64,000 nucleotides of DNA from a virus (taxonomy: Duplodnaviria > Heunggongvirae > Uroviricota > Caudoviricetes): the IMG/VR virus record IMGVR_UViG_2880412407_000011; one strand, given 5' to 3'. Numbering within the stretch: the first letter of the stretch is position 1; every line of letters starts with the position of its first letter. The notes below the pieces were generated by a model that ran no database searches, was not told the DNA's origin, and saw nothing but the letters and a program-made list of their open reading frames with translations. The position numbers and the translations under genes were made by a program. Below, in pieces: positions 16,264 to 19,218 of the stretch.

Positions 16264-19218
16264 ATGGCAGTAAAGATTTCAGGTGTACTGAAAGATGGCA
16301 CAGGAAAACCGGTACAGAACTGCATAATCCAGCTGAAAGCAAAACGTAACAGCACCACGGTGGTGGTGAACACGGTGGCATCTGAAAATCCGGATGAAGC
16401 CGGGCGTTACAGCATGGACGTTGAGTACGGTCAGTACAGCGTTATTCTGTTGGTGGAAGGCTTCCCGCCGTCACATGCCGGGACCATCACCGTGTATGAA
16501 GATTCCCAACCCGGTACGCTGAATGATTTTCTCGGTGCCATGACGGAGGATGATGCCCGTCCGGAGGCACTGCGCCGTTTTGAACTGATGGTGGAAGAGG
16601 TGGCGCGTAACGCGTCCGCGGTGGCACAGAACACGGCAGCCGCGAAGAAGTCAGCCAGCACATCAGCCGGGCAGGCCGCGACGTCGGCTCAGTCAGCGTC
16701 TTCCAGCGCAGGAACGGCATCAACAAAGGCTACTGAAGCATCAAAAAGTGCTGCCGCTGCAGAGTCCTCAAAAAGCGCGGCAGCCACCAGTGCCGGTGCG
16801 GCGAAAACGTCAGAAACGAATGCCGCAGCATCACAACTATCAGCAGCCACTTCTGCATCCACCGCGACCACGAAGGCGTCAGAAGCTGCCACCTCAGCCC
16901 GGGATGCGGCGGCCTCAAAAGAGGCAGCGAAATCATCAGAAACGAACGCATCCTCGAGCGCCAGTAGTGCCGCTTCCTCGGCAACGGCGACAGCAAATTC
17001 TGCGAAGGCGGCAAAAACGTCTGAGACGAACGCTAAGTCTTCTGAAACGGCAGCGGGACAGAGTGCCTCAGCTGCGGCAGGCTCAAAAACAGCGGCTGCG
17101 TCGTCTGCCAGTGCAGCGTCAACAAGTGCCGGGCAGGCCTCAGCCAGTGCTAGCGCCGCCGGAAAATCGGCAGAAAGCGCCGCATCGTCCGCTTCAACAG
17201 CCACAACGAAGGCTGGCGAAGCCACTGAACAGGCCAGTGCAGCAGCGAGGTCTGCTTCCGCAGCGAAGACATCCGAGACGAACGCGAAAGCGTCGGAAAC
17301 CAGCGCAGAATCCTCAAAAACGGCTGCCGTATCGTCCGCCAGTTCGGCGACGTCATCGGCATCATCGGCGTCTGCTTCAAAAGATGAGGCGACCAGACAG
17401 GCGTCAGCAGCGAAGGGCAGCGCCACGACGGCATCCACGAAGGCGACAGAGGCAGCTGGCAGTGCGACGGCGGCAGCACAGAGCAAAAGTACAGCAGAAT
17501 CCGCGGCAACGCGCGCCGAGACAGCAGCAAAACGGGCAGAGGATATTGCATCCGCCGTGGCGCTTGAGGATGCGAGCACGACGAAAAAGGGGATAGTACA
17601 GCTCAGCAGTGCGATCGACAGCACTTCCGAGTCACTGGCGGCAACGCCAAAAGCAGTTAAGGCCGCGTATGACCTGGCTAACGGGAAATACACCGCACAG
17701 GATGCAACGACAGCACAGAAAGGGATAGTTCAGCTCAGCAGCGCGACCAACAGCACGTCTGAAACGCTGGCGGCAACGCCAAAGGCAGTAAAAGCAGCCA
17801 ATGACAATGCTGAGAAACGTCTGCAGAAAGATCAGAACGGTGCGGATATCCCTGGCAAAGACACCTTTACGAAAAATATTGGAGCCTGCCGCGCCTTCGG
17901 TGGGTCAGTAAGCACAACAACAGGAGACTGGACGACTGCACAGTTTATCGAGTGGCTGGATTCTCAGGGAGCATTTAACCATCCATACTGGATGTGCAAG
18001 GGTTCCTGGTCTTATGGCAATAATAAAATCATTACTGATACTGGCTGCGGTAATATTCATCTCGCCGGAGCTGTCATTGAAGTAATGGGGATAAAGTCAG
18101 CGATGACGATCCGCATTACCACACCGACCACCTCCACTGGTGGTGGAACAACTAACGCCCAGTTTACCTATATTAATCACGGAACAGATTATTCACCTGG
18201 CTGGCGAAGGGACTATAACTCCAGAAATAAGCCAACGGCATCAGAGATCGGGGCGTTACCGTCAGGTGGAACAGCAGTATCATCAGTTAATCTGTCTTCA
18301 AAAGGTCGGGTAACCGCGCTGACAGACAATACGCAGGGGGCAACAGGTCTTGAGTTATACGAGGTGTATAACAACGGATATCCAACAGCGTATGGAAATA
18401 TCATTCACCTGAAAGGGATGACAGCCGTTGGCGAAGGTGAGTTACTCATCGGCTGGAGTGGTACAAGCGGTGCTCATGCTCCGGCATTTATTCGTTCACG
18501 ACGGGATACGACCGACGCAAACTGGTCGCCGTGGGCGCAGCTTTACACCTCGGCTCATCCTCCTGCAGAGTTTTATCCAGTCGGTGCACCAATCCCGTGG
18601 CCATCAGATACCGTTCCGTCTGGCTATGCCCTGATGCAGGGGCAGACTTTTGACAAATCTGCATACCCGAAACTTGCAGCGGCTTATCCGTCAGGCGTGA
18701 TCCCTGATATGCGTGGCTGGACGATTAAGGGCAAACCTGCCAGTGGTCGGGCCGTATTGTCTCAGGAACAGGACGGCATTAAATCGCACACCCACAGCGC
18801 CAGCGCATCCAGCACGGATTTGGGGACGAAAACCACATCGTCGTTTGATTACGGCACTAAATCCACGAATAACACCGGGGCGCATACGCACAGTGTGAGC
18901 GGTACAGCCGCAAGTGCCGGAAACCATACTCATAGTGTCACAGGCGCATCAGCAGTCAGCCAGTGGTCACAAAATGGGTCAGTACATAAGGTTGTGTCTG
19001 CGGCCAGTGTGAATACAAGTGCTGCAGGAGCGCACACTCATAGTGTCAGCGGCACAGCTGCATCTGCAGGTGCACACGCACATACTGTCGGTATTGGTGC
19101 ACACACGCACTCCGTTGCGATTGGCTCACATGGACACACCATCACCGTTAACGCTGCTGGTAACGCGGAAAACACCGTCAAAAACATCGCATTTAACTAT
19201 ATTGTGAGGCTTGCATAA
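16264..19218 (+). CDS. stf: side tail fibre protein Stf (mosaic; HxH-repeat tip)
   Basis: N-terminus [20 protein letters not shown]... and C-terminus ...[31 protein letters not shown] match lambda Stf; Ala/Ser-rich shaft; repeated HTHS/HAHT motifs. Confidence 0.9.
17584..17799. repeat. tandem direct repeat (~90-bp units) inside stf
   Basis: Two copies of ...aaggggatagt(a/t)cagctcagcag(t/c)gcga...ctggcggcaacgccaaa(a/g)gcagt... about 126 bp apart, encoding [24 protein letters not shown] twice. Confidence 0.6.

Follow-up and report, generated by a model that had tools for sequence, protein, structure and literature searches.

The side tail fibre gene stf in our window, the whole stretch of 64,000 nucleotides that was analysed, is a mosaic of lambda, Mu/P1/P2 and T4-type fibre modules, which to judge from its sequence was formed via module exchange. 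The gene (16264..19218; this and all features below lie on the plus strand) is an intact ORF of 984 aa starting from an ATG. The evidence as a whole makes it likely that stf encodes a homotrimeric modular side fibre whose specificity is set mainly by a cassette at its tip, with the central block acting as a spacer. Receptor-domain exchange, which a sequence-only reading of this DNA had placed in the central block, is most likely real, but located in the 43-aa tip cassette.

stf lies 3' of J (12135-15533) and lom (15600-16199) and is followed by tfa (from 19218), the J-lom-stf-tfa order of Ur-lambda, whose Stf has 774 aa (orf401 plus orf314 in lambda PaPa); the ORF listing also gives a GTG at 16258, just 5' of the stf ATG. 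As a side-tail-fibre gene it is unremarkable and has been catalogued before; it belongs to a lambda-like prophage in decay, in Shiga-toxin E. coli O121:H19. stf is annotated and 100% identical in O121:H19 genomes, the identity extending to at least eight O121 or related genomes, and its product is RefSeq WP_072004194.1, labelled "prophage tail fiber N-terminal domain-containing protein". Seven phage records (SPF_0923, PhiR29_1, PhiR29_2, mEp460_ev081, PhiR26_1, PhiR68_2 and PhiR42_1) carry full-length genes that are 96-97% identical to stf in nucleotides and have the same module order, with the difference that their tfa is intact; in PhiR29_2 the C-terminal 215 aa are 100% identical. A literature search on the PhiR and mEp460 phages found no fibre receptor information. 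The mosaic is already known: RefSeq and several sequenced phages contain the allele, as do about 15% of complete E. coli genomes, and both the mosaic structure of tail fibre genes and their recombination at conserved motifs belong to textbook knowledge of phages.

Both ends of the gene are lambda-like, as the sequence-only reading had proposed: by blastn, nt 16264-17662 (aa 1-466) are 79-89% and nt 18583-19218 (aa 774-984) 77-87% identical to Ur-lambda stf. By its ends and its locus stf is thus a member of the lambda Stf family, although it is not colinear with lambda Stf over its full length, aa 467-773 having no counterpart there. The N-terminal tail-attachment domain (aa 1-132; 16264..16659) matches Pfam PF08400 (phage_tail_N, E 2.4e-71) and is 89% identical to lambda in nucleotides, and in PDB 9E7M/9MGH the tail fibre chain of lambda is matched by aa 1-94 (E 9e-52). 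It runs into a rod (aa 118-435; 16615..17568) rich in Ala, Ser and Thr (37%, 25% and 13%), which composition and autocorrelation resolve into about 45 uninterrupted heptads. The only peaks of identity autocorrelation are at lags 7, 14 ... 56 (0.38-0.42 vs a shuffle maximum of 0.31), and the spacings of DNA repeats in the rod are mostly multiples of 21. Such a rod would form a trimeric coiled-coil shaft. Lambda Stf has a heptad rod of the same type, from which the rod in stf differs by a 24-aa deletion after aa ~130 and by about 105 additional residues (15 heptads; aa ~280-384; 17101..17415) that lack a lambda equivalent by alignment and by blastn segment boundaries. SPF_0923 also has the 15 extra heptads and keeps the 24 aa. 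The earlier statement that the first ~450 residues track lambda Stf therefore holds in that aa 1-466 are lambda-like, but the deletion and the insertion interrupt the match.

The rod is followed by two tandem 44-aa Phage_fiber_2 repeats (17567..17805), recognized as two significant copies of PF03406, a 42-aa repeat model (E 4.2e-37), and by a DNA repeat search, in which the copies at 17567-17673 and 17699-17805 align over 107 nt with 78% identity at a spacing of 132. A tandem unit of ~90 bp had been noticed at 17584-17799; the duplication is indeed there, but its period is 132 bp (44 aa). Tandem Repeats Finder scored no repeat over 16000-19500, the duplication being visible only by the repeat search and Pfam. 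The first repeat is lambda-like and the second opens the non-lambda block; lambda has one copy and P2-like H has four.

The block without a lambda Stf counterpart comprises aa 467-773 (~307 aa; 17663..18582). BLASTP and blastn against Ur-lambda Stf returned no match for it, and the blastn junctions fall at nt 17662/17663 and 18582/18583, so that lambda aa 386-529 are replaced here. The sequence-only reading was right that this region is absent from lambda, and domain-wise alignment confirmed that it is not colinear with lambda Stf, but the block is wider than the 17880-18560 then given. It is also not an unrecognised sequence: it consists of known internal modules, found in 800 of 5426 complete E. 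coli genomes. The first, M2 (aa ~520-654; 17821..18225), is a globular knob. The best stretch of PDB 8JU3, the Mu G(-) fibre, matches aa 515-671 (E 2.1e-69), and M2 is 73-77% identical in nucleotides to Mu S' (gp52), P1 Sv' and P2-like H, the last of which also has Phage_fiber_2 repeats and the linker before M2 in common with stf. The AF2 monomer model of the block has a pLDDT of 78-96 over M2, and 8JU3 is its sole significant PDB match in Foldseek (E 3e-21), which identifies M2 with the globular module solved in 8JU3.

The second module, M3 (aa ~655-770; 18226..18573), is mostly beta. It is 64% identical in amino acids and 71% in nucleotides to P1 Sv' (aa 47-153 there), where the modules stand in the order M3 then M2 as opposed to M2 then M3 in Stf. 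M3 is near-identical in K-12 StfQ, which aligns to aa 683-984 at 85% overall. Structure prediction, successful for M2 with a confident 8JU3-like model, yielded no confident fold for M3, whose pLDDT is 40-67 in the block model (mean 68) and averages 45 when M3 is modelled by itself. A nine-sequence M3 profile found nothing among PDB sequences even at E 10. Homology of M3 to domain 2 of Mu S' was not called, with hhalign aligning only a 29-aa terminal motif at a probability of 75%, and a Gp34_trimer Pfam match (E 0.0016, below the gathering score) was set aside.

Lambda-like sequence restarts with the Collar domain (aa 774-821; 18583..18726; PF07484, E 6.8e-12; also matched in 2XGF), which is 87% identical to lambda in nucleotides. 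Beyond it lies a needle region (18787..19137) with seven His-x-His (HxH) motifs, starting at aa 842, 874, 888, 924, 938, 947 and 956 and spanning aa 842-958; with 22 His among the 984 aa, we estimate a chance expectation of ~0.5 motifs. Against 2XGF, the T4 gp37 tip, phmmer aligned aa 770-984 to chain residues 28-242 (E 7.3e-88), with 70% identity over 215 aa and only two one-residue gaps. The match takes in collar and needle, the C-terminal 25 residues are identical, and the seven motifs are colinear with those of T4 gp37 at 883, 915, 929, 966, 980, 989 and 998; the remainder of Stf, by contrast, is unrelated to gp37. The HxH motifs had been likened to the metal-binding motifs of T4 gp37, and the direct match to 2XGF raises that resemblance to homology. 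The T4 gp37 needle holds seven coordinated irons, the H929 ring being one of the sites (PMC6957217). By homology, the HxH motifs of Stf may bind metal, and the needle may be trimeric and loaded with iron. Lambda differs in having eight HxH motifs and 10-aa and 9-aa needle insertions that are absent here, and its alignment contains 31 gap positions; in the length of the C-terminal domain and the number of motifs (seven), stf resembles T4 gp37. The C-terminal domain as a whole was at first taken to be nearer to T4, a reading that was dropped: the architecture is T4-like, but outside the tip the sequence agrees better with lambda (about 87-90% identity for the collar and needle flanks).

The tip itself follows neither relative. 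The last ~250 residues had been said to track lambda, and this is true of the flanks but not of aa 891-923, where identity is 27% with lambda and 21% with T4 (932-964); the tip head has 33 aa here vs 45 in lambda. This segment belongs to a hypervariable cassette of 43 aa (aa ~887-929, including HxH 3 and 4; 18921..19049), the predicted receptor-contact head. We compared 82 unique alleles, drawn from the best 120 matches of one search and mostly from E. coli prophages. Their flanks are 92-100% identical to the window's stf, aa 890-919 only 13-31%; variability is confined to aa ~885-925, while M3 and the collar are nearly invariant. Among these 82 alleles there are about 50 distinct tips of 29-61 aa. 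The same pattern is seen with K-12 stfQ, where no nucleotide similarity exists in 18921-19049, the StfQ cassette being unrelated and 16 aa longer, although both flanks are about 96.5% identical. Tfa is 95-99% conserved despite the differing tips. The T4 tip makes its receptor contacts in the subdomain enclosed by the third and fourth HxH, and binding to OmpC/LPS requires residues 929-960 (PMC6957217). By homology to T4 and from the variability pattern, the receptor contact of Stf would lie in the cassette. The T4 contact residues for OmpC/LPS, N937, G938 and others, are not conserved in the stf tip, and since aa 891-923 are only 21% identical to T4, the same receptor as in T4 cannot be assumed.

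These data bear directly on whether the replaced central block (aa ~467-773) might itself be the exchanged receptor-binding domain that sets host specificity. It is the largest segment differing from lambda, M2 is compact, globular and confidently predicted, and its modules have their origin in Sv', the variable part of the Mu and P1 fibres. However, in Mu S' and P1 Sv' a further C-terminal domain comes after these modules, and in stf a complete gp37-type tip comes after them. Moreover, M3 and the collar hardly vary across alleles that differ profoundly in the tip cassette, and the block has stayed 96-98% conserved among phages and strains whose hosts differ. M2 and M3 are known internal modules, proximal to a complete gp37-type collar, needle and tip; therefore, the central block is probably not a receptor-domain exchange as the sequence-only reading had it, and we regard that possibility as quite improbable. 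The sequences suggest that its exchange was probably a swap of shaft or spacer at natural domain boundaries.

A dual-site fibre was also considered, in which the tip is the main site and M2/M3 provide a lateral lectin-like site (for O-antigen or LPS core, for example), so that exchange of the block alters host range too. With the help of its side fibres Ur-lambda gets past unmodified O16 O-antigen, and there are phages with two receptor-binding domains (bioRxiv 10.1101/2024.09.12.612763). The other Foldseek matches of the block model include R-pyocin fibres, though all are weak and non-significant. Searches with Pfam, Foldseek and PDB profiles found no significant similarity of the M2/M3 block to known carbohydrate-binding domains, and both modules are conserved rather than diversified, which argues against such a site. 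Since M3 has no solved or confidently predicted fold, it could be an undescribed binding domain. Nevertheless, we consider a dual-site fibre unlikely, and its strongest form, a dual-specificity adhesin in which M2/M3 make a second lateral receptor site and exchanges of block and tip together tune host range, very doubtful. A fibre with the tip as its main determinant and the block as spacer is the reading we retain.

The relationship to the Mu and P1 fibres does not extend to their ends. The C-terminal receptor-binding domains of Mu S' (gp52, 8JU3), P1 Sv' and P2-like H are absent from Stf: the alignment to Mu Sv' ends at its residue ~250 of 328 and the rest is unmatched. Nor does stf have the invertible segment or gix/cix-like site of Mu and P1. 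No Gin/Cin/Pin crossover-like (AAACCNNGGTTT-type) sites were found near stf or tfa, and the one AAACCNNGGTTT-type match in the window, at 51936, is within chance expectation. An invertible fibre segment was thus rejected for want of crossover sites near stf, despite the adjacent serine recombinase gene.

The gene is intact, but its surroundings are not. The 5' part of tfa, the tail fibre assembly chaperone gene (19218..19739; Pfam Caudo_TAP, E 1.5e-30), encodes 172 native residues that share 99% identity with TfaQ and 95% with lambda Tfa, and then meets a stop inside IS600. The element (~1264 bp; 19732..20995; ORFs 19796-20098 and 20134-20952; an IS3-like element in the annotation of an identical genome) interrupts tfa after codon 172 of about 191-194, leaving a 3' remnant for the last 20 residues (20998..21060), seen in the sequence and listed in the annotation as an incomplete tail fiber assembly protein. 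A 100%-identical genome has a truncated terminase and a stop within its capsid gene. The prophage is defective, its head and terminase functions lost. Because tfa is split by IS600 and these functions are gone, the fibre is probably not assembled in this genome.

These defects raise the question of whether stf is here a functionless relic in a dead prophage, its ORF having survived by chance or because it serves recombination with phages that enter the cell. Besides the split tfa, the truncated terminase and the capsid stop, the Qin cryptic prophage of K-12 points this way: its right end is syntenic (stf-tfa-pin-type recombinase-ydfK-ynfT), and of its side fibre it keeps only StfQ, a 320-aa C-terminal remnant. 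A stop-free ORF of 984 aa, on the other hand, is unlikely to last long without selection, other lambdoid prophages of the same genome could supply Tfa in trans, and stf is identical throughout the O121 or related genomes mentioned above, though clonality may explain this. Homologous regions occur at a median of 4 places per genome. We judge the chance that stf is a relic to be a little short of even. A relic would be compatible with our account of what stf encodes.

Taken together, we propose that the lambda-like (Qin-type) prophage has in stf the gene for a homotrimeric side tail fibre, assembled from modules that circulate among unrelated coliphages. The lambda Stf N-terminal domain would dock on the tail tip, and from it would extend the rod of ~45 heptads, in one place 15 heptads longer than lambda's, and the two 44-aa Phage_fiber_2 repeats. 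Two knobs from the Mu S' / P1 S' / P2 H fibre lineage would then take the place of lambda's own 130-aa middle segment, followed by a T4 gp37-type collar and a beta-needle stapled by seven His-x-His metal sites, with a head of 33-43 aa at the far end contacting the receptor. Folding of the distal part would fall to Tfa, the product of the neighbouring gene. Lambda Stf binds OmpC reversibly (PMC7291167) and resembles the gp37 tip (PMC11338833). The fibre may likewise attach first, and reversibly, to an outer-membrane protein or LPS, which would speed adsorption before J binds its receptor, and the tip cassette may be exchanged via recombination within the near-identical His-box flanks.

The fusion points of functional engineered lambda STF chimeras, lambda aa 393 and 528, all but coincide with the natural junctions in stf (lambda aa ~385 and ~530). 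This coincidence of natural junctions with the engineers' fusion points is of modest practical value. The 43-aa cassette between conserved His boxes would be a minimal swappable unit for retargeting particles, with about 50 natural tips to try.

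The side tail fibre gene stf was confirmed as a plus-strand open reading frame (16264-19218; 984 aa counted from the ATG), and the gene order is that of lambda: J (12135-15533), lom (15600-16199), stf and tfa (from 19218). The window comes from the chromosome of Shiga-toxin-producing E. coli O121:H19; strain 16-9255, like several further O121 or related genomes, matches it at 100% identity over nt 15500-20200. The stf product already has a RefSeq entry (WP_072004194.1, "prophage tail fiber N-terminal domain-containing protein"). Moreover, seven phage records (SPF_0923, PhiR29_1/2, mEp460_ev081, PhiR26_1, PhiR68_2 and PhiR42_1) carry a full-length stf of like architecture at 96-97% nucleotide identity. 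With at least 80% held as the criterion, nt 17560-18700, a query covering the Phage_fiber_2 repeat, the central modules M2 and M3 and the collar junction, is present in 800 of 5426 complete E. coli genomes, and a lom-stf-tfa query in 623. A named or solved relative exists for each stf module, and stf is an ordinary mosaic tail fibre gene that was already known.

We compared stf domain by domain with the full-length, unframeshifted Ur-lambda Stf (774 aa; record LC730321) by blastn, with concordant results from BLASTP and MAFFT. The lambda-like 5' part spans nt 16264-17662 (aa 1-466; 79-89% identity), and lambda likeness restarts at nt 18583 (aa 774) and runs through the end of the gene; over the C-terminal 214 aa, identity to lambda is 69% and the alignment has 31 gap positions. 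No match in Ur-lambda stf was found for nt ~17663-18582 (aa 467-773). Because this central block fails to align colinearly with lambda, the mosaic is real, as a sequence-only reading had proposed from the lambda-like ends and a centre lacking a lambda counterpart, but the block extends over ~307 aa and is wider than the 17880-18560 assigned to it. Functional lambda STF chimeras have been engineered with fusion points at aa 393 and 528 (bioRxiv 10.1101/2025.02.28.640725), in keeping with the natural junctions at lambda aa ~385 and ~530, which supports reading the latter as domain boundaries. A lambda-P2 STF chimera has also been made (PMC11338833).

The anchor (aa 1-132) belongs to Pfam phage_tail_N (E = 2e-71) and matches the lambda fibre N-terminus in the solved lambda structure 9E7M. 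The rod (aa 118-435; window 16615-17568) is composed of 37% Ala, 25% Ser and 13% Thr and has a strict 7-residue periodicity, with autocorrelation peaks only at multiples of 7 (0.38-0.42 versus a shuffle maximum of 0.31) and a heptad register unbroken across ~318 aa. We infer from the sequence a trimeric coiled coil of ~45 heptads. The lambda likeness of the N-terminal part, which holds overall, is interrupted at two sites: a 105-aa insertion at aa ~280-384 adds exactly 15 heptads, and a 24-aa deletion past aa ~130 is not a whole number of heptads; these two length differences suggest that fibre length changes through repeat slippage or recombination. The rod also contains long nested open reading frames, 16689-17693 (minus strand; 334 aa) and 16748-17596 (plus strand, other frame; 282 aa), comparable to the annotated orf206b of lambda. 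The antisense frame had no Pfam match, and both are most likely artefacts of repetitive GCN/TCN-rich codon usage. After the rod lie two copies of Pfam Phage_fiber_2 (17567-17673 and 17699-17805; E = 4e-37), where lambda has one and a P2-like H has four. They represent the tandem duplication seen earlier, although its unit is a 132-bp period (44 aa; 107 nt alignable at 78% identity) and not ~90 bp; Tandem Repeats Finder did not score it.

M2 (17821-18225; aa ~520-654) matches the solved Mu G(-) fibre gp52/S' (PDB 8JU3; best-stretch E = 2e-69), which was its only significant PDB match in Foldseek, and shares 73-77% nucleotide identity with Mu Sv', P1 Sv' and a P2-like H. M3 (18226-18573; aa ~655-770) shares 64% identity with P1 Sv' residues 47-153, and its sequence is nearly the same as that of the N-terminal part of E. 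coli K-12 StfQ; a profile search found no PDB relative of M3, whose similarity to Mu S' domain 2 is limited to a 29-residue terminal motif. Structure prediction of the central block, proposed in the sequence-only reading, was confident for M2 (AF2 pLDDT 78-96) but of low confidence for the M3 monomer. P1 Sv' (comparison record L006, AF234173; 3362-4919) holds both modules of window 17821-18573 in the order M3 (aa 47-153) then M2 (aa 215-350), whereas stf has M2 then M3. The two fibres thus differ by a clear module permutation, and the reversed order identifies M2 and M3 as independent shuffled modules. The replaced centre had been taken as receptor-binding domain exchange. Exchange did occur, but the central block consists of known internal modules proximal to a complete tip, and M2 or M3 is rather unlikely to contribute to receptor binding.

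That tip (aa 770-984) is of the gp37 type, matching the T4 gp37 receptor-binding tip 2XGF (E = 7e-88) at 70% identity with two single-residue gaps only, and includes a Pfam Collar domain (aa 774-821). Seven HxH motifs start at aa 842, 874, 888, 924, 938, 947 and 956, against a chance expectation of ~0.5 estimated from the 22 His of stf. Their one-to-one alignment with the seven of T4 establishes the gp37-type motifs as direct homologues, which bears out the sequence-only reading of them as motifs like the metal-coordinating ones of the T4 gp37 tip; lambda has eight because of additional 10-aa and 9-aa needle segments. By this homology, the window Stf would bind metal.

As a homologue of lambda Stf, the trimeric fibre would first contact a surface receptor reversibly and would speed adsorption ahead of J engaging its own receptor. 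Lambda Stf, which has a gp37-like tip, binds OmpC reversibly, aided by Tfa (PMC7291167; PMC11338833); OmpC cannot be assumed as the receptor of the window allele. The window Tfa (19218-19739) is 95% identical to lambda Tfa (record L001, 3824-4408) and 99% to TfaQ of Qin (record L009, 3456-4031) despite unrelated Stf tips, which fits recognition of the conserved needle or C-terminus of the fibre and not of the receptor-binding head.

Past codon 172, tfa is interrupted by a 1264-bp IS600 (about 19732-20995), whose flanking 3 bp (GAG versus GGG) do not form a perfect target duplication; the final 20 tfa codons remain at 20998-21060. Unless Tfa comes in trans, the fibre is probably left unassembled here. 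Moreover, in a 100%-identical annotated genome (record L008, 1-4001; window ~1-3500) the terminase gene is truncated and the prohead protease/major capsid fusion gene has an internal stop, and thus the prophage is defective. Its right end, stf, tfa, a serine recombinase gene (Resolvase and HTH_7), ydfK and ynfT (the last three within 21158-22500), shows synteny with the Qin cryptic prophage of K-12 (stfQ-tfaQ-pinQ-ydfK), and the prophage is a less-eroded one of the Qin type. A search around stf and tfa turned up no gix/cix-like crossover site, and hence nothing points to an invertible fibre segment. Just downstream, a second, Rac-like prophage starts, and 23128-26830 holds its integrase (23128-24423), a further IS600 copy (orfB 26012-26830) and an additional IS3-family transposase frame (24735-25622, minus strand) that is seemingly absent at that position in strain 16-9255.

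In T4 gp37, OmpC and LPS binding requires residues that line a tip subdomain, roughly 929-960, between HxH 3 and 4 (PMC6957217). The corresponding tip of stf is not lambda-like: aa 891-923 are only 27% identical to lambda and 21% to T4, against 77-90% for the flanking needle and collar. K-12 stfQ is 96.5% identical to the window in nucleotides on both sides (18311-18920 and 19050-19732); compared alongside these flanks, nt 18921-19049 showed no similarity to stfQ, which carries an unrelated tip cassette 16 aa longer. A database search gave 82 unique C-terminal domains, in which the flanks are 92-100% identical to the window and aa 890-919 only 13-31%, with ~50 distinct tips of 29-61 aa; seven HxH motifs occur in 68 of 83 domains (the 82 plus the window's own). 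In the 1990s, Tetart, Krisch and colleagues reportedly described variable segments flanked by "His boxes" in T-even gp37, and the stf pattern matches them. Fibre segments have also been exchanged horizontally among lambda, T4, P2, Mu and P1 (reportedly Haggard-Ljungquist et al. in 1992, and Sandmeier et al. in 1992 and 1994). The comparisons with T4 and lambda, with stfQ and across the 82 domains place the variability of the stf family in the segment matching the T4 receptor-binding subdomain, and the 43-aa cassette at nt 18921-19049 is the most probable determinant of specificity.
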